A stretch of 64,000 bases of DNA from Clostridia bacterium. Lineage in GTDB: Bacteria > Bacillota > Clostridia > UMGS1883. The first letter of the stretch is position 1. Every line of letters begins with the position of its first letter. Location of the stretch: the NCBI GenBank assembly GCA_017411435.1, contig JAFQQD010000027.1, positions 2,926 through 66,925 on the forward strand. The letters run 5' to 3'. The notes under the pieces were generated by a model that was not told where the DNA came from, did no database searches, and saw only the letters and a list, made by a program, of their open reading frames with translations. Shown here piece by piece: positions 10,901-24,221 of the stretch. A program made the translations under genes and the position numbers.

Positions 10901-11488
10901 ATGAAAAAATTTGTATGTTCAGTATGTGGTTATGTTCACGAGGGTACAAATCCTCCCGAGGCTTGTCCCGTATGTAAGGTTCCTGCTGAAAAGTTCAAGG
11001 AAATGCAGGAAGGCGCAGCTCTTGCAGCAGAGCATGAGTATGGCGTATATGCAAAGACAGTAAAAAACAACCCCGATATTTCAGAAGAAGATAAGAAGTA
11101 CATCTTCGAACAGTTGATGGCTAACTTCAACGGCGAATGTAGCGAAGTTGGTATGTACCTTTGCATGGCACGAATTGCTCATCGCGAAGGATATCCTGAA
11201 ATTGGTCTCTACTGGGAAAAGGCAGCTTATGAAGAAGCAGAACACGCTGCAAAGTTTGCAGAGCTTCTCGGCGAAGACCTTGAGCCCAACATGAAGGCTA
11301 CAACAAAAGACAACCTTAAGTGGAGAGTTGACTGTGAATATGGTGCAACTCAGGGTAAGTTTGACCTCGCTTCTTGTGCAAAGAAGAACGGCCTTGATGC
11401 AATCCATGATACAGTTCACGAAATGGCTCGCGACGAAGCTCGACACGGGAAGGCATTAGAAGGTTTGCTCAATAGGTTCTTCAAGTAA
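10901..11488 (+). CDS. rbr: Reverse rubrerythrin (N-terminal rubredoxin site plus di-iron domain); last codons element-derived
   Basis: CSVCGY...CPVC at N-terminus; EAEHA and EARHG di-iron motifs. Confidence 0.93.
11435..11451 (+). repeat. attL core region
   Basis: GAAGCTCGACACGGGAA; 15/17 match to 24161-24177. Confidence 0.85.
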
Positions 11489-11628: not shown

Positions 11629-11699
11629 GTGGGCAGTTGGTGGGCAAAACCCACCAAAAAATCACTCTGCCCACCACAAAAAATGCCATTTGCCCACCA
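11629..11699. repeat. Putative integrase arm-type sites near attL
   Basis: GTGGGCAGTTGGTGGGCAAAA 11629-11649 (exact copy at 24080-24100); inverted TGCCCACCA at 11668 and 11691. Confidence 0.7.
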
Positions 11700-11707
11700 A
11701 AGTATTG

Positions 11708-12286
11708 TCAAGTATTACTGTTTATAAACCCTTTGACTTCACTTTTTGCTCTGTTGTTTTCCCTATCAACCTTTAATTCTTTTGAGATAGATATTCTCCC
11801 TATCACTTCTTGTATATCAAGTCTTTTTCTTTCTTCAAAACAATATTCTACTGCATACATAAAGTTTAAATCATAAAACTTGGAATAATACTTGGGGTTA
11901 ATAACAACATATTTATTTCTTCCAATCTTATAAAATGCTATCAAGTTTAGTCTTTCAAGCATATTTAATGTATTATATGTATGTACCACAGAATAACCCA
12001 TTTTTTCTGCAATTTCTTTTATTGAAAGTTTCAAAAGGTTTGTATCTGGTTCTATATGCTTGACATTGATATTTACAAGTAGAATAAAAAAGTTTGTGTA
12101 TTTTCTATCTACACCCAATTTGTTTACAAGAAAATCTAATGCAGTAATATGTATCTTCATAAACTTTCTTTTGTCTTTTTTCTTTTTCTCTGGAAGAACA
12201 ATAGTAGAATACCCTTTACTGTTAATGCTAAAAAGTTCTTTCCAGATTTCATTATGTTCAAGACCACTGATTTGTTTCATATACAC
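11708..12286 (-). CDS. RepL-like winged-helix replication/maintenance protein
   Basis: SIKEIAEKMGYS...TLNMLE HTH followed by G...YVVINP, as in Firmicute RepL-type proteins. Confidence 0.55.
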   Translation of the reverse strand: MYMKQISGLEHNEIWKELFSINSKGYSTIVLPEKKKKDKRKFMKIHITALDFLVNKLGVDRKYTNFFILLVNINVKHIEPDTNLLKLSIKEIAEKMGYSVVHTYNTLNMLERLNLIAFYKIGRNKYVVINPKYYSKFYDLNFMYAVEYCFEERKRLDIQEVIGRISISKELKVDRENNRAKSEVKGFINSNT

Positions 12287-12423: not shown

Positions 12424-12849
12424 TTATTCTATATCTGCTATGTCAACTAAATCATTTTTGAAAACAAAACAAATCTCTTTTAAATCTCTACACTCTGTTA
12501 TTACATACTCAATGTTGAGAACCCTAAAATAAGTTTGAAAAAAAGCAAAAACTTCTGGAAACCAATTCCTAATTTTTAAAATACCATTTGAAAAATAAAT
12601 GTCTGCATTGTCATACATACTACTTGCATACTCTGCAATGTATTCAACAAGTCTGTATTGATTCACTGCAATAAAACCTTTAATGTTTTCTACTACACCT
12701 TTTTGTAAAAGAGAAGAAACAACATAAGAAATATTTGGTTGAGTGCAACCTATACACTTTGACATTTCTTCTTGGTTAAAATGAAATTGTTTGTTGTTTA
12801 GTAGTGATAATGTTAAAATCTCACTGCTATTTATGAAAAATGCTCCCAT
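12424..12849 (-). CDS. Small winged-helix (MarR-like) DNA-binding protein
   Basis: NQEEMSKCIGCTQPNISYVVSSLLQKGVV; ATG at 12849 follows AAGGAGGTG. Confidence 0.6.
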   Translation of the reverse strand: MGAFFINSSEILTLSLLNNKQFHFNQEEMSKCIGCTQPNISYVVSSLLQKGVVENIKGFIAVNQYRLVEYIAEYASSMYDNADIYFSNGILKIRNWFPEVFAFFQTYFRVLNIEYVITECRDLKEICFVFKNDLVDIADIE

Positions 12850-12977
12850 TTTCCACCTCCTTAAAAATAATATAATTTTGAGTTTATACAAATATAAATC
12901 TCTTTATAATTGTTTTAACACCATTTTATATTACTGTCAAATTATAAAAATATTTATATTTTGGTAAAGGTTTTGAT

Positions 12978-13124
12978 GGACTGCTTAAAAGATACTTTGA
13001 AACAAAACTGGTAAAAAAATCACAAAACTAAATCTGGACCGGTTCTGTGTTAGATTTAATTTCTGCAAAAAATAACCAGTTTTCAAAATAGGGGTTCAAA
13101 GGTCTGTTAGATAGATATTTTGAA
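12978..13124 (+). repeat. 147-bp structured direct repeat, copy A
   Basis: 3 mismatches to 20267-20413; nested inverted arms AAACTGGT/ACCAGTTT and TAAATCT/AGATTTA. Confidence 0.92.
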
Positions 13125-13130
13125 ATAAAA

Positions 13131-13161
13131 AAACTACCAACTGAAAAACAGTTGATAGTTT
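13131..13161 (-). terminator. Intrinsic terminator
   Basis: AAACTACCAACTG-aaaaa-CAGTTGATAGTTT hairpin at the 3' end of 13166-13642. Confidence 0.65.
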
Positions 13162-13165
13162 GCTT

Positions 13166-13642
13166 TTAATCTTCTATTGGTCTTGGAGAAATATTAAAAA
13201 TCTCTTTCTTTTTTCTTCTGGCATAGGTAAAGGTTCTGTATGCTCCCCCATAGTGCCTTTCTATATAGCAAATAACATACTCACAGTTATCTACAACATA
13301 CTCATTTCCTTTTATGATTTGAAACTTCTGGGGAGTGTTCAAGGGTATATCTGCCATAAGAATATTATCATAATCTTTATAATACAGTTCCTTGTATTCA
13401 TTTATGCCTTTGGTTATGTATGGTATAACCAACTCTAATTTTATATCAGTATAAGTTTTCTGCAACTCTCTTATAACAGAAGAAGAACACCCATCAAATC
13501 TGCCATAATGCCCAACCCAGAACTCACTGACATTATGATTTAAAATCAAATCTTCTGCTATTGCTTTTATTTTTTCTCTTGTTTCTTCTGGGTAAGTAAT
13601 ATCACTATGCCCACAGAAACAACACCTTTTTATATTTTCCAT
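13166..13642 (-). CDS. SLOG-superfamily protein (DUF1273/YspA-like)
   Basis: CCFCGH N-terminus; F.VG.YG.FD, N.YVVD and GGAY.T..YA motifs. Confidence 0.7.
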   Translation of the reverse strand: MENIKRCCFCGHSDITYPEETREKIKAIAEDLILNHNVSEFWVGHYGRFDGCSSSVIRELQKTYTDIKLELVIPYITKGINEYKELYYKDYDNILMADIPLNTPQKFQIIKGNEYVVDNCEYVICYIERHYGGAYRTFTYARRKKKEIFNISPRPIED

Positions 13643-13770
13643 AATTACACCTTGCTAAAATACTAAAACTTCCTTGACACAGAAGTTTTATTTTATTATA
13701 CATAATAATCTTTTATTTGTAAATAGTTTATAATTATATATATAAAATAATTATGTAGATAGGTGTTTTT

Positions 13771-14019
13771 ATGAACTATTATAATGAAAAAGAATATCAA
13801 ATGTTTATAATAAAAGTTGGGTTAAAAGTTGGTTATTACAGAAGACTTGCAAATATGACACAAGAGCAGTTGAGTGAAAGCAGTGGTATGTCATTAAACT
13901 TTATTTCTCAATTAGAAGGTCCTTCTGCTCCTTATGTTCCTTCCCTAAAATCACTATTTAAAATAAGTAAAGTGTTAGGTGTTCCAATAAATAAATTAGT
14001 AGATGTAGATAATGATTAA
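13771..14019 (+). CDS. XRE-family HTH regulator
   Basis: YRRLANMTQEQLSE...ISQLE...PSLKSLFKISKVLGV. Confidence 0.88.
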   Translation: MNYYNEKEYQMFIIKVGLKVGYYRRLANMTQEQLSESSGMSLNFISQLEGPSAPYVPSLKSLFKISKVLGVPINKLVDVDND

Positions 14020-14042
14020 AGACTGCCAATGAGCAGTCTTTT

Positions 14043-15044
14043 TTAACTATATAAATAAATCTGTTTCAGGTCCTTTCTTTCCCCACTATGAGATAAGTGC
14101 CTTTGAATAACCATACTTTCTGCTTTTTCTTTACTCCACCCTTTATCAAGATAATATTGTAGTGCAATCTGGCAGTGATATTTTCTAAATTGGTGGTTTT
14201 TCCCACTGACTTCTAACCCCAATTCTTTTGTGATTTTTCTTATTTCATTACTCATAATTTGCCTTGTTGCTTTTGTGTCCTTTGGTAAGTCAAAAAGTCT
14301 GTCAGTTGGGTTCTTGCCTTGTTTCAGTTCTTCAAAAAAACTTCTGTATTCTGGGAGTATAATTCTATAACTATCTTTGCCACCTTTACCTACAATATGA
14401 ACAGTAGAATAAGTGTCTATTCTTCCATCTTTGGTAGTGGTGGTATAGGTATGAGTGTCAAGGTTAATATCTTCTGCTTTTATATTTATGAGTTCAGAAA
14501 CTCTGCAACCTAAAAATGCCATTGTCTTAATCTCATTTTGTCTGTTCCCTTTGTAGTTGCATATCTGTATAATTTCAGTATTTGTGTAAGTTCTTGCAGA
14601 ATTAGTTTTATATGTATCTTCCACCTTGTGTGCCTTTACTTCTTGTGTATAAAACTGCTCACAACCAAACTTTTTGGAACAAGCAATAGAAACTTTTTCC
14701 AACATATTTTTGTATGCAGCAACAGTTTTTTTACTGCAACCTTGTTTTGTGTTCAAATATTCCAGACACATTTTTGGTGTGATTTCTTTAACCATTTTTA
14801 TGTTGTAGTTTTCTTTCAAGAACTTAACAAAGTTTTTGCTTTTCTCTGCCAAGCATTGTGCAGTTCTTTGAGAAAATACATAGTTAATGCTTGTCCCATT
14901 TTTCTTAAACTCCCTTTTGCCAACACTTGAAAAATGAGTGCCATTTTCTCTGTTGTAAATCTCTGTTCTTTTTTCTTGATTTTGCATATTTATTTCTGCA
15001 AGTGCAGTGTGTATTTGATAACCCAAAGACTTATTTTTGCCCAT
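14043..15044 (-). CDS. Second tyrosine recombinase (candidate recombinase-type relaxase)
   Basis: GCRVSEL (R), GKGGK (K), HQFR (HxxR), LSH and terminal Y; no recognisable arm-binding domain. Confidence 0.8.
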   Translation of the reverse strand: MGKNKSLGYQIHTALAEINMQNQEKRTEIYNRENGTHFSSVGKREFKKNGTSINYVFSQRTAQCLAEKSKNFVKFLKENYNIKMVKEITPKMCLEYLNTKQGCSKKTVAAYKNMLEKVSIACSKKFGCEQFYTQEVKAHKVEDTYKTNSARTYTNTEIIQICNYKGNRQNEIKTMAFLGCRVSELINIKAEDINLDTHTYTTTTKDGRIDTYSTVHIVGKGGKDSYRIILPEYRSFFEELKQGKNPTDRLFDLPKDTKATRQIMSNEIRKITKELGLEVSGKNHQFRKYHCQIALQYYLDKGWSKEKAESMVIQRHLSHSGERKDLKQIYLYS

Positions 15045-15073
15045 TTTGAAAATACCCCCTTTTTAATCTGTAT

Positions 15074-15609
15074 TCACTGAAAATGGCAACATTTTCAGTG
15101 ATTTTTCCATAAAAAATGATTTTACACATTTTTTATAATTTTTTTCCTATTAAATACATTTTATTCCTTTTTATTTCTTTTTTCTGGTGCAGTGCAAAAT
15201 TGTTTAGGTTTAAATCAACCTAACCAATTTTGCAACAAAGTTTGGTATAATAAAAACCGGTTTTTTATTATACCAAATATGTGCAAAAAAAATCTGCTAC
15301 AACCAATAGCAGATTTTATCTGTCTTTTGAAAAATCACTCTTTGACTTTTTATAAGTTTAGTATGGCAGTTGCCACAAAGAACTTTTAAAAAGTCCCAAA
15401 AATAATTTATGATAAACACCACAAGTGGTGGAAAGAAAAATTATTTTTCCCTTGTTTCCTTATCAAGAGAAAATGTCTTTTGTGGGAAAGACAAAGAGTG
15501 TAAGAGTGATTTTTTCCAAAAGTTGTGTATAAGTAAAAAGTTTTAATATTATATAGTCTATCTGTAAGTTAAAACTTTATTGTTGCGAGTGCAAGAGTTC
15601 TGCTCTTGC
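15074..15609. other. Non-coding cluster of inverted repeats (candidate oriT/origin)
   Basis: IRs at 15074-15101, 15193-15234, 15241-15277, 15289-15317 and 15591-15609, plus shorter ones; no credible ORF. Confidence 0.55.
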
Positions 15610-15702
15610 TTTTTCTTTTTAAGAAAGGTCTGTTGGGAGTGTATATAAATGAAACCATTTATATTATTGTAGATAAAAAGTAAATACCCTTTTTTACATA
15701 AG

Positions 15703-15733
15703 CAAAGGAGCAGATTTTTTGTCTGCTCCTTTT
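15703..15733 (-). terminator. Terminator of the Xre regulator gene
   Basis: AAAGGAGCAGA-7nt-TCTGCTCCTTT. Confidence 0.7.
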
Positions 15734-15740
15734 GTCATTT

Positions 15741-16793
15741 TTATTTTATATATGAAATCAGTAAATCAGTTAATTTAACTCTAAAACTTTCAATGTCTGT
15801 TTCTGTTGCAGAGAATAAAGGGGAGAAATCAACATTGATAGCATTAACAAACTTATCTTTTCCATTTGTGCAGTTGTCTATCAGTTTTAAAACACTTTCT
15901 GGCATATTGCCATTTTTTAAAGATTGCAGTTTGTTGTAAAAGTCCCTACTGCTTATAGGTGCTCCTTGACTGATAAAATTACTTTGAAAATTGTTGTCAG
16001 TGTAATTTTCAACAACCTTTGCAATTTTATCAAAAATGTTTTCATAACCATAACTTTCTAACTCATTGTAAATGTCTGCATAAATCTGGTCATAGTCTTT
16101 TCTTTGTCTTTCTTCCAGTTCCAGACAGACAAGCAGTGAAAACAAAGTGGAGTATCTTATCTTATTATTAGTAAGAATATCATTGACAATGCAGTTAATG
16201 TCCTTGTCAGTTAGTTCATATTTGATACACCAATAAGGGTAGTTGCCCAAGTCCTTGTATTTCTCTGTATCAAGACCAACATACACTTCATTTGCTACTT
16301 TTATACTTGTTTTCAGTTTTATGTGCTTGTTGCCATTAAGTTTTTGCAGTGCAACAGTCCAGGCAGTAAAAGTGTCAGTTTCTTCTATACTCCTTAATAT
16401 TCTTCTTTCAAGAGCATTACTCAAAGTAATATACTGATACTTCATATAATATGCCTTAACCCAGTCTTGATTTTGCAGATTTTCTATTTCTGCATTTGCC
16501 CCATACAAATATTTTTCCAAGTGCATAATCACAAATTGGTCTATGGGCATAGTTTCCCAACCCACCTTGTTTTTGTATATTTCAAAGAAATTATTAAGAG
16601 TGTCAGTTGTGATACTGTTGCTCCCAGTTGCCTTTTCAAGATTTTTATATGTGTTGAGTTTCATACCCAAAAGTTCTGCCATATCTTCTGCCATAAGATT
16701 TATGTCTTTTCTCATATCTTTAAGGTGCTTTTTCAGTTCTGGTGTCAAATCATACTTTACACCTTGTGTAATATTTCTGCTTTCAGTTCCCAT
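15741..16793 (-). CDS. Large XRE-HTH regulator (probable element repressor) with unknown C-terminal domain
   Basis: LKDMRKDINLMAEDMAELLGMKLNTYKNLE; divergent from xis-int. Confidence 0.72.
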   Translation of the reverse strand: MGTESRNITQGVKYDLTPELKKHLKDMRKDINLMAEDMAELLGMKLNTYKNLEKATGSNSITTDTLNNFFEIYKNKVGWETMPIDQFVIMHLEKYLYGANAEIENLQNQDWVKAYYMKYQYITLSNALERRILRSIEETDTFTAWTVALQKLNGNKHIKLKTSIKVANEVYVGLDTEKYKDLGNYPYWCIKYELTDKDINCIVNDILTNNKIRYSTLFSLLVCLELEERQRKDYDQIYADIYNELESYGYENIFDKIAKVVENYTDNNFQSNFISQGAPISSRDFYNKLQSLKNGNMPESVLKLIDNCTNGKDKFVNAINVDFSPLFSATETDIESFRVKLTDLLISYIK

Positions 16794-16827
16794 TTTGGTT
16801 GTCTCCTTTCCTTATTATATATTATAT

Positions 16828-16975
16828 ACTATACACCAAAAAATCTATTCTGTCAAGTCAAAAATACAAAAATAACACCCCAAGTGTTTTGGAATAAAAA
16901 ATATTTTAAAAATATTTCAAAAAACCATTGACACAATAATTTTTGTATGTTATAATATAAAACACTGAGGGTGTT
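16828..16975. promoter_or_regulatory. Divergent sigma-A promoters with two inverted 15-bp operators
   Basis: Plus strand: TTGACA 16928, 17 bp, TATAAT 16951. Minus strand: TTGACA (16856-16851), 17 bp, TATAGT. Operators AACACCCCAAGTGTT 16874-16888 and AACACTGAGGGTGTT 16961-16975 (13/15 as reverse complements). Confidence 0.8.
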
Positions 16976-17041
16976 AAAATGAAACATTGAAAACAAAATG
17001 TATTGTTTTAACATCATAATTTCAAAAAAGGGAGTGATTAA

Positions 17042-17254
17042 ATGACAACTTCAAGACTTGTGTTAAGTGTTTGTGAAGTAGCAAAGATATTAGGTGTCAA
17101 TAAGGGTTCAGTTTATGCCTTAATACATAGTGGAGCATTATCTGCTATAAAGTTTGGAACATACAAAGTTCCTTCTTTTGAAGTAGATAATTTTCTTCAC
17201 AAGTATTCTGGTTGTGATTTAACTGACCTTAATAATATAAAAACATTAAATTAA
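17042..17254 (+). CDS. xis: Excisionase (HTH_17/MerR-like)
   Basis: LSVCEVAKILGVNKGSVYALIHSGAL.A.KFG; directly upstream of int. Confidence 0.85.
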   Translation: MTTSRLVLSVCEVAKILGVNKGSVYALIHSGALSAIKFGTYKVPSFEVDNFLHKYSGCDLTDLNNIKTLN

Positions 17255-17271
17255 GAAAAGGAGTGTTGAAA

Positions 17272-18492
17272 ATGGCAGAAAAGATTTATGAAGGAACAAG
17301 ATTTAAGGGTGGTAGTTGGAGATACAGAATAAAAATGACACTGCCCAATGGTACAAAAATTAACAAAGAAAAAGCAGGTTTCAAAAGTTCTTATGAGGCA
17401 AGTCAAGCAAGAATTGAAGAGATTGGCAGAATAAAACTCACAAACTTTGTTGAGAAAAAGATAACTTTAAATGAAATGTATAGTCTTTACTTGAAAGAAA
17501 GTGCAACAAAGCAGAAGAGTTATAACACAGTGTTAAGGTATAATTCCATATACAAAAACCATATTGAAAATAGTCTTGGAGAAATGTATGTGGCAAGAAT
17601 ACAACCACTTGACATTACACATTTCTTAAATGAAAAGGCAGAGCAGTATAAGACTGACTACCCTTTGAGTATGTATAACTTTTTCTTGGTTCTCTTTGAT
17701 TTTGCAAGAAAGCATAAGTATATAAATGAAGATATTATGGCATTGGTTGAAAGACCAAGACCTTACACAAGACCAGAAAAGGTGTTGCTAACCCCAGAAG
17801 AGTTTAATGCTCTTGAAAAAAGGTTAATGTCAACAAATGTGCAAGTTGCTTTTACCATAGGAAAAAATAGTGGTTTAAGGGCAAGTGAAGTATATGGGTT
17901 AAGGTGGAGTGATTTTGACTTTGAAAACAACACTTTTGAAGTTAAAAGACAACTTCAAAAAAGGGAAATCAAAGAAGGTGGCAAAGTCTGGCATTTAGTT
18001 CCAGTGAAAACCACAAAAAGTGAAAGAACCATTTATTTTGGAGAAGAGTTTTCCCAGTATATGCAGTTTGTGAAGAAAATGCAAGAAGAAAACAGAAAAA
18101 GACTTGGTAAGTTCTATAAGAGCAACATAATAAATGCTGCAATGGACAAAAATCACCCAGAAATTGTGGAGATTTGGAATGTTGAAGATTTTGTCTGTGT
18201 AAAAGAAAATGGTGCAATGCTTTCTCCAGATAGCAACAAGGTTATTAGCAGAATTGCAAAAGAAATGGGTTTAAAGTTTAACTTCCATTTGTTAAGACAC
18301 TACTATGCAAGTGCCTTACAACAAAATGGTGTTGATATTACAGTTATTAGAGATTGTCTGGGACACTCTAATTTAAGAACCTTGCTTGAAGTCTATTCAC
18401 ATTGCAATGAAGAACAAAGAAGAAGTGCAGGAGCATTGATTGACAGTCTTATGGGTGCTAAAAATCTTATGCCAGAACCAGTGGCAGAGTAA
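17272..18492 (+). CDS. int: Tyrosine integrase with N-terminal arm-binding region
   Basis: GGSWRYRI...GF N-terminus; GLRASE, HLLRH, LGH and VYSH catalytic motifs; ATG 17272 after AAGGAG. Confidence 0.95.
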   Translation: MAEKIYEGTRFKGGSWRYRIKMTLPNGTKINKEKAGFKSSYEASQARIEEIGRIKLTNFVEKKITLNEMYSLYLKESATKQKSYNTVLRYNSIYKNHIENSLGEMYVARIQPLDITHFLNEKAEQYKTDYPLSMYNFFLVLFDFARKHKYINEDIMALVERPRPYTRPEKVLLTPEEFNALEKRLMSTNVQVAFTIGKNSGLRASEVYGLRWSDFDFENNTFEVKRQLQKREIKEGGKVWHLVPVKTTKSERTIYFGEEFSQYMQFVKKMQEENRKRLGKFYKSNIINAAMDKNHPEIVEIWNVEDFVCVKENGAMLSPDSNKVISRIAKEMGLKFNFHLLRHYYASALQQNGVDITVIRDCLGHSNLRTLLEVYSHCNEEQRRSAGALIDSLMGAKNLMPEPVAE

Positions 18493-20212: not shown

Positions 20213-20239
20213 AACCACCAACTATGGCAGTTGGTGGTT
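20213..20239 (+). terminator. Terminator of the cassette array
   Basis: AACCACCAACT-atggc-AGTTGGTGGTT followed by T-rich sequence. Confidence 0.8.
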
Positions 20240-20266
20240 TTCTTATACTCTGGAAAAGGGTTTAAG

Positions 20267-20413
20267 GGACTGTTTAAAAGATACTTTGAAACAGAACTGG
20301 TAAAAAAATCACAAAACTAAATCTGGACCAGTTCTGTGTTAGATTTAATTTCTGCAAAAAATAACCAGTTTTCAAAATAGGGGTTCAAAGGTCTGTTAGA
20401 TAGATATTTTGAA
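20267..20413 (+). repeat. 147-bp structured direct repeat, copy B
   Basis: Near-identical to 12978-13124. Confidence 0.92.
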
Positions 20414-20489
20414 TTATAAAAAAGGTGTTTATAAAGTTCTCTATAAATAAACAATTACAAAAAATAACATAATAAAGGGAGTGCTACAA

Positions 20490-21039: not shown

Positions 21040-22188
21040 ATGGCAGGGACAAAAGATTTACATAATGCAAAAAAAGAGAAAAAAGATGAGTTTTATACTC
21101 AACTTGAAGATATAGAACTTGAACTAAAACATTATAGAAATGACTTTAAAGGCAAGGTTATTTTTTGTAATTGTGATGACCCCTATGAAAGTAATTTCTT
21201 TAAATACTTTGCAATGAACTTTAATACTTTTGGACTTAAAAAGTTAATTGCTACTTGTTATGCTACTTCCCCAGTGGCAAACACACAACTTTCTTTGTTT
21301 GATATTTTAGATATGCCAGAAGAAACAGAAGAAGATAACAGAAAACCACATAAAATAGAGATTACAGAAGTTCTGGACTACAATGAAGATGGAGCAGTAG
21401 ATTTAGCAGATGTTGAGTTTCTTTTAAGAAGTAAAAAAAACACTCTTACACTTCTTAATGGAGATGGAGATTTTAGAAGTGAAGAGTGTATAGAACTTTT
21501 AAAACAAGCAGACATAGTTATAACAAACCCACCATTTTCTTTGTTTAGAGAATATGTTGCTCAACTAATTGAATATGACAAGAAGTTTATTATTATAGGA
21601 AATAAAAATGCTATCACTTATAAAGAAATATTTTCTTTAATACAAGAAGAGAAAATGTGGTTGGGTTATAGAAATATAAATGCAGATATGTGGTTTATAG
21701 TTCCAAAAGACTATGAGTGTGAAAAGGTTGTAAATGGTTTAAGAGTTAAGCATATTATGGGTTGTTGGTTCACAAATCTTGACACAACTAAAAGACACGA
21801 AGATTTATTGCTTTTCAAACCATATACCCCAGAAGAATACCCCAAATATGATAATTATGATGCCATAAATGTTGATAAAGTTAGTGATATTCCTTGTGAT
21901 TATGATGGTGTTATTGGAGTTCCTATAACATTTCTTGATAAATACAACCCTAACCAATTTGAAATACTTGGGTTGTCTCAAAAAGTTGGTATGGGGTTAG
22001 AAAGCAACAAGTTTTATGATGATTACAAGGAAGTAAGACAAGATGGCAGTTTTACTGGTAGTTCTGGCAAAAAAACAAATGGAAACCCAGTAATGAAAGG
22101 AAAACCAGAAAAAGGAAATTACTACACTAATGGAACTGATTTTGTATATTCTCTCTATGGAAGAATATTCATAAGGAAAAAAAGGTGA
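21040..22188 (+). CDS. Adenine-specific DNA methyltransferase, EcoRI family
   Basis: K.DEFYTQL, CNCDDP.ESNF, GDFRS.E, ITNPPFSLFREY and GVPITFLDKYNP.QFEI motifs. Confidence 0.92.
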   Translation: MAGTKDLHNAKKEKKDEFYTQLEDIELELKHYRNDFKGKVIFCNCDDPYESNFFKYFAMNFNTFGLKKLIATCYATSPVANTQLSLFDILDMPEETEEDNRKPHKIEITEVLDYNEDGAVDLADVEFLLRSKKNTLTLLNGDGDFRSEECIELLKQADIVITNPPFSLFREYVAQLIEYDKKFIIIGNKNAITYKEIFSLIQEEKMWLGYRNINADMWFIVPKDYECEKVVNGLRVKHIMGCWFTNLDTTKRHEDLLLFKPYTPEEYPKYDNYDAINVDKVSDIPCDYDGVIGVPITFLDKYNPNQFEILGLSQKVGMGLESNKFYDDYKEVRQDGSFTGSSGKKTNGNPVMKGKPEKGNYYTNGTDFVYSLYGRIFIRKKR

Positions 22189-22192
22189 GTTT

Positions 22193-23302
22193 ATGGAAAT
22201 AAGATTAGAAGAAAAAACAATTAGAGAAATCTATAATGGTTATCTTGATAGTGCAGAAAATGGAGTGGTTGCATTTGGTGGAAAATTAAATGTAAGACCA
22301 CCTTTCCAGAGAGAGTTTGTCTATTCTGGCAAACAGAGAGATGCAGTCATTGATACAATACAAAAAGACTTCCCATTAAATGTTATGTATTGGGTTGAAA
22401 ATGACAATGGTTATTATGAACTTCTTGATGGACAACAAAGAACCATAAGCATTTGTCAATATGTGGGTGGAGAATATTCCATAAACCACAGAGCATTTGG
22501 AAACTTGACTGAAACTGAAAAAGAGCAGATTTTGAATTATAAACTAATGATTTATATTTGTAAAGGTAATGACAAAGAGAAATTAGACTGGTTCAAAATC
22601 ATAAATATTGCAGGAGAAAAACTAACAGACCAAGAGTTGAGAAATGCCATTTATACTGGTGAGTGGTTGTCAAATGCAAAAGCATATTTTTCTAAAAATA
22701 ACTGCCCAGCATATCAAATAGCAAGTAAATATATGAGGGGAACACCCATAAGACAAGACTACCTTGAAACAGTCTTAAAATGGGTTTCTGCAAGAGATAA
22801 TATTGACTTGGAAGATTATATGGCAGAACACCAGAACACCACAAATGCAAGTGAATTATGGTTGTATTTCAACAGTGTTATTACTTGGGTAAAAACTATA
22901 TTCCCTAATTACAGAAAAGAAATGCAAGGCATTGAGTGGGGACTGCTCTATAACAAATATGGTAATGATAAACTTGACCCACAAGAACTTGAAAAAAGAA
23001 TAGTTGAGTTAATGCAAGATGATGACATAACAAAAAGAAGTGGCATATATGAATACTTATTAAGTGGAGAAGAAAAATACTTGAACATAAGAAGTTTCAC
23101 AGACACAATGAAAAGAAAAGTCTATGAGAAACAAAAAGGTATATGCCCACATTGTAAAGCAGAGAAGAAAGAGAAAATACACTGGGAGATTGAAGAAATG
23201 GAAGCAGACCACATTACACCTTGGTGTGAAGGAGGAAAAACAGAAATTGAAAATTGCCAAATGCTCTGCAAAGAACATAACAGAAGAAAATCAAGTAAAT
23301 AA
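22193..23302 (+). CDS. DUF262 (GmrS-like) plus C-terminal HNH endonuclease
   Basis: P.FQR, DGQQRT and F..IN motifs; CPHC...MEADHITPW.EGGKT...NCQMLC..HN.RK. Confidence 0.9.
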   Translation: MEIRLEEKTIREIYNGYLDSAENGVVAFGGKLNVRPPFQREFVYSGKQRDAVIDTIQKDFPLNVMYWVENDNGYYELLDGQQRTISICQYVGGEYSINHRAFGNLTETEKEQILNYKLMIYICKGNDKEKLDWFKIINIAGEKLTDQELRNAIYTGEWLSNAKAYFSKNNCPAYQIASKYMRGTPIRQDYLETVLKWVSARDNIDLEDYMAEHQNTTNASELWLYFNSVITWVKTIFPNYRKEMQGIEWGLLYNKYGNDKLDPQELEKRIVELMQDDDITKRSGIYEYLLSGEEKYLNIRSFTDTMKRKVYEKQKGICPHCKAEKKEKIHWEIEEMEADHITPWCEGGKTEIENCQMLCKEHNRRKSSK

Positions 23303-23973: not shown

Positions 23974-24060
23974 AAAAATACATAATCACAGAATATAAAT
24001 ATACTGTGATAAACAGAAACAGACCTAAAACCTTTGGTTTTATGCCCTTATTCTTTGAAA

Positions 24061-24100
24061 TGGTGGGCACAAGAAAAAGGTGGGCAGTTGGTGGGCAAAA
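24061..24100. repeat. Putative integrase arm-type sites near attR
   Basis: TGGTGGGCA 24061; GTGGGCAGTTGGTGGGCAAAA 24080-24100. Confidence 0.7.
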
Positions 24101-24160
24101 TGAGATTGAAAATCACAGAACCCTTGATTTTACTGGGTTTCTGTGAGTAAGTCCCATTGT

Positions 24161-24211
24161 GAGGCTCGCCACGGGAAAGGCTTGGAAGGTCTTTTGAAGA
24201 GATATTTCTAA
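24161..24211 (+). pseudogene. attR with the displaced original 3' end of rubrerythrin
   Basis: Translates EARHGKGLEGLLKRYF*, versus [17 protein letters not shown] at 11435-11488. Confidence 0.9.
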
Positions 24212-24221
24212 TCAACAATTT

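Follow-up and report, generated by a model that had tools for sequence, protein, structure and literature searches.

A portable tyrosine recombinase and its structured upstream region as a candidate origin module in islands and filamentous prophages of gut Clostridia

Relaxases with a tyrosine recombinase (YR) fold form a young class on which little work has been done; the three that have been characterised, TcpM of pCW3, MobK of pIGRK and MpsA of SGI1, are grouped as MOB_M and use the YR domain for strand processing at an adjacent origin. MobK, TcpM and MpsA have been described as lacking a core-binding domain (PMC8152469). SGI1 also needs a small RNA, the essential sgm-sRNA, which is encoded beside mpsA and the origin of transfer (oriT), between the two (PMC9299015), and YR-type relaxases are reported to be common in chromosomal islands, where 96% of them adjoin an integrase (bioRxiv 10.64898/2026.01.13.699239). 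A gene in a similar setting is found in a 64,000-nucleotide stretch of a Clostridia bacterium (GenBank assembly GCA_017411435.1, contig JAFQQD010000027.1, positions 2,926 to 66,925), referred to here as the window. It encodes a 333-aa YR, YR333, and adjoins a hairpin-rich non-coding region inside an island of about 12 kb that has its own integrase; an earlier note on this DNA had read the gene and the region as a mobilisation module, that is, a TcpM/MobK-like relaxase with its oriT. Comparison of more than 40 loci with a YR333 homologue (labelled L001 and so on) shows that the upstream region, the YR gene and a small helix-turn-helix (HTH) gene are conserved as a unit, independently of the integrase of the element. 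A new finding is that certain filamentous prophages, in which no other Rep is detectable, appear to have the YR and its upstream region in the place of the initiator. All of the evidence is comparative.

The upstream region and the YR gene travel together in all loci, usually with HTH82, an 82-aa protein, and it is the integration module that varies. The unit occurs with a tyrosine integrase (Int) and an excisionase (Xis) in L001, L009-14, L023, L035 and L036, and with a large serine recombinase in L002, L003, L015, L020, L021 and the phages described below. Because the window island comes with a separate Int and Xis and with 21-bp terminal repeats, and because the homologues of YR333 pair with differing integrases, YR333 is not the integrase of the island. 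On this point the earlier note was right, as it was in tying the YR to the adjacent non-coding DNA and in seeing no HUH relaxase in the element: no relaxase, Rep, coupling protein or type IV secretion system (T4SS) family was found among the main open reading frames (ORFs) of the island (at least 70 aa; Pfam on all, PHROGs and NCBIfam on subsets). The upstream DNA can be aligned even where the YR proteins are just 45-68% identical, and its orientation relative to the YR gene is constant in all loci (20 or more). HTH82 is 82-100% identical in most of the islands and phages compared, and about 50% in L013 and L019. Between the window and the phage L028 it is 90% identical, whereas the YRs share just 44%, and more generally it is 90-100% identical between elements whose YRs are 44-68% identical (window 13771-14019; L028 9086-9352; L002 11030-11278). 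This near-identity indicates that regulation or immunity is shared, or that the gene was exchanged recently. In several elements a fragment of 42-55 codons that resembles part of the serine recombinase directly precedes the module at the left end (L002/L003 9254-9379, L039 9347-9490, L027 9137-9301); it could be the remnant of an earlier tandem copy, or mark an attachment (att) site inside a recombinase gene.

YR333 belongs to the tyrosine recombinase superfamily, matching Pfam Phage_integrase (PF00589) at 31.6 bits (cut-off 27.1). The R, K, HxxR, H and terminal Y motifs that had been read from its sequence hold up, and an alignment of 45 family members shows no variation at R181, K220 (in GKGGK), H284 and R287 (in HxFRK), H319 and Y330. 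Equally, the arm-binding N-terminus is absent: Pfam gives neither an arm-binding nor a SAM_3 match, unlike for the neighbouring Int (17263-18492), which has a significant SAM_3 match and a sub-threshold Arm-DNA-bind_4 match. YR333 carries a 60-aa helical N-terminal extension, many residues of which are also invariant in the alignment, and a weak SAM-like match at residues 94-138 (Pfam). With its AlphaFold2 model, which has a pLDDT of 93.2, Foldseek finds IntI, XerH and Cre at probability 1.00, and two-domain recombinases align with the model over 300-350 columns, led by the IntI4-attC complex (2a3v) and including XerH, XerA, Cre and the Tn1549 Int. Because YR333 aligns along its whole length with two-domain recombinases, a core-binding domain is present. 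The likeness to IntI is one of fold only, since neither the IntI-specific model TIGR02249 nor the extra domain of IntI was matched at E <= 0.1. The XerD, XerA and XerC models match far below threshold only (TIGR02225 at 40 bits against a cut-off of 330, XerA at 39 against 220), which places YR333 outside the Xer equivalogs. No HUH or Rep_trans domain was found and YR families alone match, which sets it apart from rolling-circle initiators.

A search of 5.8 billion proteins returned 105 clusters of YR333 relatives, nearly all from Clostridia in gut metagenomes, and these form two classes, one of 333 aa (64-92% identical) and one of 302-321 aa (44-55% identical). The family is small, with 18 clusters at E <= 1e-30 against the family profile. 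It is surrounded by a wider set of 248 clusters (50% identity) of YRs of about 300 aa at E <= 1e-10; given this number, 'second integrases' of the YR333 kind are probably widely mis-annotated. A PDB search with the single YR333 sequence returned nothing, a BFVD fold search generic phage integrases only, tblastn against phage GenBank no match, a protein scan of IMG/VR no relative, and a scan of metagenome contigs short contigs only.

The suggested kinship with TcpM was examined at the level of profiles. TcpM does align with the family profile in hhalign (90.7% probability over 219 columns), a level expected between any two YRs. The family hidden Markov model, however, scores TcpM of pCW3 at 16.2 bits, below the Xer-like PDB protein 4a8e (37.1) and the YRs of small plasmids (66-92), and BLASTP of YR333 against TcpM gives nothing significant (E = 2-3); the published MOB_M profile has a cut-off of 84 bits. 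YR333 therefore appears no closer to TcpM, the MOB_M member compared, than to ordinary recombinases. It also departs from the MOB_M description of a catalytic domain without core- or arm-binding domains, a mark that is itself soft, as TcpM matches XerA models nearly end to end. Descent from TcpM or MobK is thus not supported by these comparisons, nor is YR333 demonstrably conjugative; what survives of the relaxase idea is the role, as strand processing of a relaxase-like kind fits better than integration.

It seems quite improbable that YR333 is a true MOB_M conjugative relaxase with 15045-15740 as its oriT, on an island mobilisable via a helper T4SS. Such a reading would gain from the presence of an integrase and the lack of another relaxase in the island, from the frequency of YR-type relaxases next to integrases, from the hhalign match, and from the need of SGI1 for a small RNA beside mpsA and oriT. 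Apart from the low TcpM score, it is opposed by the core-binding domain and by the surroundings of the gene. Genes for a T4SS or a type IV coupling protein turned up neither in the island of the window nor in precomputed Pfam lists of about 40 loci, and no pCW3-like conjugative plasmid is among the plasmid matches. Moreover, the same module takes the initiator position in filamentous prophages, to which a conjugative relaxase would be of no use.

Plasmid matches are of another kind. Distant YR relatives, 21-29% identical and scoring 66-92 bits against the family profile, lie on plasmids of 3.3-3.6 kb. These are pRGI00546 (L033), which encodes a Rep_1 protein and the YR only, pA01 (L007), with a Rep and the YR, and pCQ92_6 (L006), in which no Rep is recognisable and a 78-aa ribbon-helix-helix ORF overlaps the YR start. 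The latter ORF has a weak NikA-like match (E 0.0018), which would again suit a conjugative relaxase. The second gene in such small plasmids, here the YR, is usually a mobilisation gene, which speaks for a relaxase-like role.

The upstream region covers 696 bp without a conserved ORF, in agreement with the hairpin cluster of about 700 bp that had been noticed next to the YR start; seven terminator-like hairpins lie in 13600-17300, against 1.1 expected, and five of the seven fall inside the region. It is more than the oriT-like cluster first supposed, since it contains a covarying domain of about 200 nt between promoter-like and terminator-like signals, in addition to an invariant hairpin (Table 1). 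The domain is composed of a long closing helix, internal hairpins, an invariant unpaired ACTAAAC and a TTCCYACA loop. A 258-nt segment (15278-15535, minus strand) folds with a minimum free energy of -79.8 kcal/mol (z = -8.97). Across 16 sequences, 77% of cells in the domain pair, compared with 40-49% in slid controls, and 32 pairs have changes on both sides, the observed covariation score being matched by none of 500 shuffles. The hairpin and T-run at the end of the domain are present in 16 of 16 aligned loci. Rfam, searched with 13 kb at E <= 1, gave only one 21-bit chance match, elsewhere; a covarying element without an Rfam match parallels the unexplained small-RNA requirement of SGI1.

Two readings of the domain compete, a structured RNA and a single-strand DNA origin, and its folding strand is probably the YR strand, to judge from the pairing pattern. 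An RNA is favoured because of the promoter-like start and the conserved hairpin with its T-run; the phage context allows a single-strand origin. Further towards the gene, the TGGTATAAT palindrome is found in island-type loci and is absent from phage-type loci, and the stem just before the Shine-Dalgarno sequence covaries across loci, its opposite strand reading as a terminator followed by a T-run (conserved TGATTTT). The ends of the closing helix could also be taken for inverted repeats (15330-15351 and 15493-15514), and with the promoter-like hexamers in the region they would allow a DNA invertase, in which the YR flips a promoter-bearing segment as a regulatory switch. This is scarcely credible: the repeats act as the closing helix of a covarying fold, and no reads or contigs with both orientations were seen. 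The constant orientation of the region relative to the gene also argues against an invertible switch.

The invariant hairpin follows the pattern GGTTAGGT-N3-8-AACCTAAAC, and its core in the window is GGTTAGGTTGATTTAAACCTAAAC (15202-15225, minus strand). In 27 loci each YR gene has a single copy of the pattern, 150-190 nt upstream of it, and the window contains one copy where none is expected by chance. All of its 26 distinct versions have the apical arms and a G.A mismatch in common, while the lower stem of 7-8 bp is Watson-Crick paired at positions 1-7 in 23-26 of the 26, with 13 different stems. Such a signature suggests that the hairpin is recognised partly through shape and partly through sequence. 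The invariant heptamers of the two arms are 6-11 bp apart across loci, unlike a duplex core site of the Xer/Cre type with its fixed 6-8-bp spacer, and this variable spacing, together with the covarying outer stem, fits a hairpin or cruciform better. The module offers an unusually clear candidate substrate, an invariant hairpin with a conserved mismatch. In integrated copies so far, the hairpin is internal to the element and never at its end. A scan of IMG/VR for the pattern gave 40 matches, mostly to one unrelated hairpin and T-run without the lower stem, and independent families were near chance. The invariant ACTAAAC of the structured domain (15359-15365) echoes the CTAAAC of the 3' arm of the hairpin (15202-15207), and an RNA with ACTAAAC could pair with the opposite strand of the hairpin, though the motif is short and the echo may be due to chance.

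The main rival explanation starts from the same hairpin. A dimer or multimer resolvase of the Cre/lox or Xer/dif type would recombine two copies of a palindromic site and keep the excised circle, or the phage replicative form, monomeric. YR333 shares its fold, domain order and catalytic residues with the simple recombinases Xer and Cre, the family profile ranks a Xer-like protein above TcpM, the target resembles an inverted repeat, and relatives on small plasmids stand alongside a Rep of the plasmid itself. Still, a resolvase is rather unlikely. Besides the arm spacing and the hairpin-like outer stem, YR333 differs from these enzymes at its C-terminus. Cre and Xer use the segment after the nucleophilic tyrosine for subunit exchange, and YR333 lacks this segment, because Y330 lies 3 residues from the C-terminus. 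A resolvase would also leave the constant link to the covarying 200-nt domain and the missing Rep of the phages unexplained, and neither filamentous phages nor rolling-circle plasmids are known to need dedicated resolvases.

The repeats on which the earlier note had let such a resolvase act, given there as 147 bp, are a direct repeat of 180 nt, 94% identical and hairpin-rich inside (12954-13133 and 20243-20422). One copy lies between the gene for a YpsA-like protein and w155, a winged-helix gene, and the other upstream of a 137-aa ORF. L023 and L012 have both copies in corresponding positions, and L001 has one copy only. The repeats were rejected as resolution sites: they are absent from most YR carriers, including L002-type islands and phages, all of which retain the YR, and thus are not its general substrate. 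The repeat has no Rfam match, and homology to a non-coding region of about 1 kb in the phages was likewise rejected, as only a terminator-like hairpin is common to the two.

A further explanation is a second, single-strand-specific integrase, which would recombine the folded hairpin with a site on the chromosome or on a partner, in the way that XerCD acts on CTX-phi attP(+) and IntI on attC. These systems likewise combine a two-domain YR with a hairpin substrate that has a conserved mismatch, the IntI-attC complex is the top fold match, and tandem arrays exist in L039 and L040. Nevertheless, this is very improbable, since every well-bounded element ends in another integrase and direct repeats, and since the hairpin lies inside the element near the YR gene, not at a junction. 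Nor is there an IntI-specific family match, as described above. The resemblance of the heptamer GTTAGGT to the attC consensus GTTRRRY was dismissed as coincidence, as the polarity is reversed with respect to the attC R boxes and the motif carries little information.

The 302-321-aa YRs are the first gene in serine-integrase prophages of about 9-10.5 kb that have Zot/pI and coat-like genes. One of them, L028, is a contig of 10,713 bp whose ends overlap by 141 bp, which closes it to a circle of 10.57 kb. Its first part consists of the upstream region, a 319-aa YR, an HTH gene on the opposite strand, a protein with two transmembrane segments, about 1 kb of conserved non-coding DNA and small ORFs. 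These are followed by a 59-aa coat-like protein, proteins of 248 and 376 aa (signal peptide, C-terminal anchor), an 83-aa membrane protein, a 248-aa pI/Zot homologue and a 594-aa serine recombinase. The pI/Zot homologue matches Pfam Zot at 21 bits (cut-off 20.3) and PHROG 1675, 'morphogenesis, protein I of M13', at E 4e-8, and a Zot match is also on record in L092. An 84-aa ORF in the gpV slot is a candidate from its position and size alone. L027, L039-41 and L089-92 are laid out like L028, as is L026 as far as its contig reaches. These carriers fit the description of an inovirus (pI/Zot morphogenesis ATPase and small coat-like proteins, genome of 6-10 kb), unlike the window island, which has no filamentous-phage morphogenesis genes.

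Because of the pI/Zot, coat-like and anchor-bearing genes and their layout, the phage-type carriers are, as far as gene content can tell, integrated Gram-positive filamentous (inovirus-like) phages. For none of their genes is a Rep or relaxase family on record (Pfam), and the YR with its structured upstream region stands where gene II and the intergenic origin region would be expected. The correspondence with the Ff phages extends to a structured region, a hairpin, an A/T-rich tract and the first gene, as well as to small coat-like proteins, a pIII-like protein and the pI/Zot layout. In contrast to Ff, the YR phages have a YR instead of an HUH nuclease, from which the opposite polarity of the covalent link is expected, they live in Gram-positive gut Clostridia and Bacilli, and they integrate by a large serine recombinase. 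No report of a YR as the initiator of a filamentous phage was found in the literature.

Behind the gene for the small membrane protein, the phages have a second stretch of conserved non-coding DNA, about 1 kb long (Table 1). It is 70-93% identical among them, has no ORF above 96 aa and is not shared by the islands, and it may serve as a packaging signal or as an additional origin. Tandem arrays at one site are seen in L039 and L040 (9245-20960), where a prophage ending in a serine recombinase is followed by a second element that opens with the hairpin and a YR. In L040 this second element is of the island type, with a 333-aa YR.

With a confidence that stops a little short of even, we propose that YR333 is a Rep- or relaxase-like enzyme that cleaves and rejoins a strand at the hairpin of an origin module. 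The module would consist of the structured non-coding domain, the invariant hairpin, the A/T-rich tract, the YR gene and the small Cro/C1-type repressor. The YR would bind the hairpin, either extruded from supercoiled DNA or formed in single-stranded DNA, and by cleaving and rejoining one strand there it would start and/or finish unit-length single-stranded circles, a role functionally analogous to that of TcpM, MobK and MpsA and distinct from integration. The 200-nt domain could be a transcript, serving as primer or cofactor in the manner of sgm-sRNA with the YR-type relaxase of SGI1, or a complementary-strand origin that folds in the single strand. In its favour, the prophages have the YR at the head of their genes, next to the structured region and in the usual position of the rolling-circle initiator gpII, and otherwise show no detectable Rep. 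From MOB_M, YR333 would differ in its core-binding domain and 60-aa extension, in having no conjugation genes detected nearby and in its filamentous-prophage carriers. If the proposal is true, strand processing of the YR type extends to Gram-positive gut bacteria and to virus replication.

Several observations weigh against the Rep- or relaxase-like role. YR chemistry yields a 3'-phosphotyrosine and a 5'-OH and is unable to prime rolling-circle synthesis; as no 3'-OH primer is left, an extra priming step has to be assumed, which the structured transcript, if real, could provide. The fold is closest to the true recombinases IntI, XerH and Cre, and the distant YRs on small plasmids coexist with a Rep_1 protein and so are not the replication initiator there. 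In the phages, small unannotated ORFs or the second non-coding region could conceal an unrecognised initiator. The excess of G.T over A.C pairs (88 against 58), which bears on the strand that folds, is modest, and the RNA runs, in which related elements appear only as contigs of low depth that lack usable ends, are uninformative. Finally, in two metagenomes that hold the window, reads cover the island to the same depth as the chromosome (about 17x) and show neither a circular nor an empty-site junction of the island. An L028-like phage was represented in the same two metagenomes by low-complexity matches and the shared HTH region only.

For the window island, the proposed origin module would serve single-strand-based replication or transfer after excision by Int and Xis, and the island is perhaps a satellite of a related filamentous phage. 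Taken further, a lineage of gut filamentous phages would have swapped its HUH initiator for a YR that works with the invariant hairpin and a structured RNA or single-strand element of about 200 nt, and phage-less islands with methylase and GmrSD genes would be RS1-like satellites that keep the origin module, the repressor and the integrase; we regard this scenario as tenable and yet doubtful. Like the RS1 and TLC satellites of CTX-phi, the islands are phage-less integrative elements with phage replication and regulation genes, found in tandem with a phage (L040), and their repressor is near-identical to that of the phage (HTH82, 90%). They differ from these Vibrio elements, which use the HUH Rep RstA and host XerCD, and the second 1-kb non-coding region of the phages is missing from them. 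The module suggests how small defence-carrying islands of gut Clostridia may move.

Table 1. Coordinates of the island, the upstream region and the genes discussed (window positions, except for the last row)
Feature	Position	Strand	Basis or occurrence
YR333, 333-aa two-domain tyrosine recombinase, ATG start	14043..15044	-	ORF, Pfam, alignment, fold model
Hairpin just upstream of Shine-Dalgarno (AAAGGGGG) and ATG	15074..15101	-	hairpin scan, alignment
A/T-rich tract between invariant hairpin and YR gene; conserved A-runs	15105..15192	-	alignment
Invariant hairpin, proposed YR target	15193..15234	.	alignment, pattern scan
Perfect 16-nt palindrome with TGGTATAAT on both strands, promoter- or operator-like	15241..15277	.	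sequence, alignment
Terminator-like hairpin, then T8 (15292-15285) on the YR strand	15284..15323	-	hairpin scan, alignment
Covarying multi-helix domain, about 200 nt	15325..15522	-	folding, covariation
TATAAT, -10-like hexamer upstream of structured domain; conserved in closer loci only	15548..15553	-	read from sequence
Terminator hairpin closing 350-aa HTH gene; distal edge of non-coding region	15704..15732	.	hairpin scan
Left 21-bp direct repeat GTGGGCAGTTGGTGGGCAAAA; island end, low-GC block begins	11629..11649	+	repeat search
w192, 192-aa winged-helix protein (MarR/ArsR-like core, weak DnaD-like PHROG match)	11708..12286	-	island-type loci only
w155, 155-aa winged-helix protein	12424..12891	-	accompanies YR in island-type loci only
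HTH82, 82-aa Cro/C1-type HTH protein, convergent with YR gene	13771..14019	+	Pfam, locus comparison
Xis-like HTH_17 protein and 409-aa Int, the island's own integration module	17042..18492	+	Pfam
Right 21-bp direct repeat; other island end	24080..24100	+	repeat search
Second non-coding region of the phages	L092 10967-12036; L039 11506-12545; L089 8376-9517; L028 9916-10572 and 1-362		

The island is a low-GC block (0.26-0.33, compared with about 0.42 in the flanks). From left to right it encodes w192, w155, a YpsA/SLOG-like protein, HTH82 and YR333, then, beyond the non-coding region, a 350-aa HTH protein, Xis and Int, and after Int several unknown ORFs, an EcoRI-type methylase and a GmrSD/HNH nuclease. 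The model of w192 has a pLDDT of 61 and generic MarR/ArsR-like matches. The 350-aa protein (15741-16793), between the module and Xis-Int, is recognised by its N-terminal HTH alone, with a weak RstR-like match; it is restricted to islands with a tyrosine Int, at identities of 34-94%. The cargo at 21040-23302, the EcoRI-type adenine methylase (467 bits) followed by the GmrSD-N/HNH nuclease, is a probable defence or modification-dependent restriction pair, and is also present in L010, L014 and L022, placed differently relative to the YR.

Several copies of GGTGGGCA/TGCCCACC in both orientations lie at the island ends (11629-11700 and 24060-24100) and are probably binding sites of Int. Among these repeats are a 23-bp tandem repeat (11655-11699) and, at 20226, 12 bp that match part of the att repeat. 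To the left of the island there is an intact rubrerythrin gene, which ends at 11488, and a remnant of a rubrerythrin 3' end (…ARHGKGLEGLLKRYF and stop) with a terminator lies just beyond the right repeat, at 24150-24212, which suggests an earlier insertion event at the same site.

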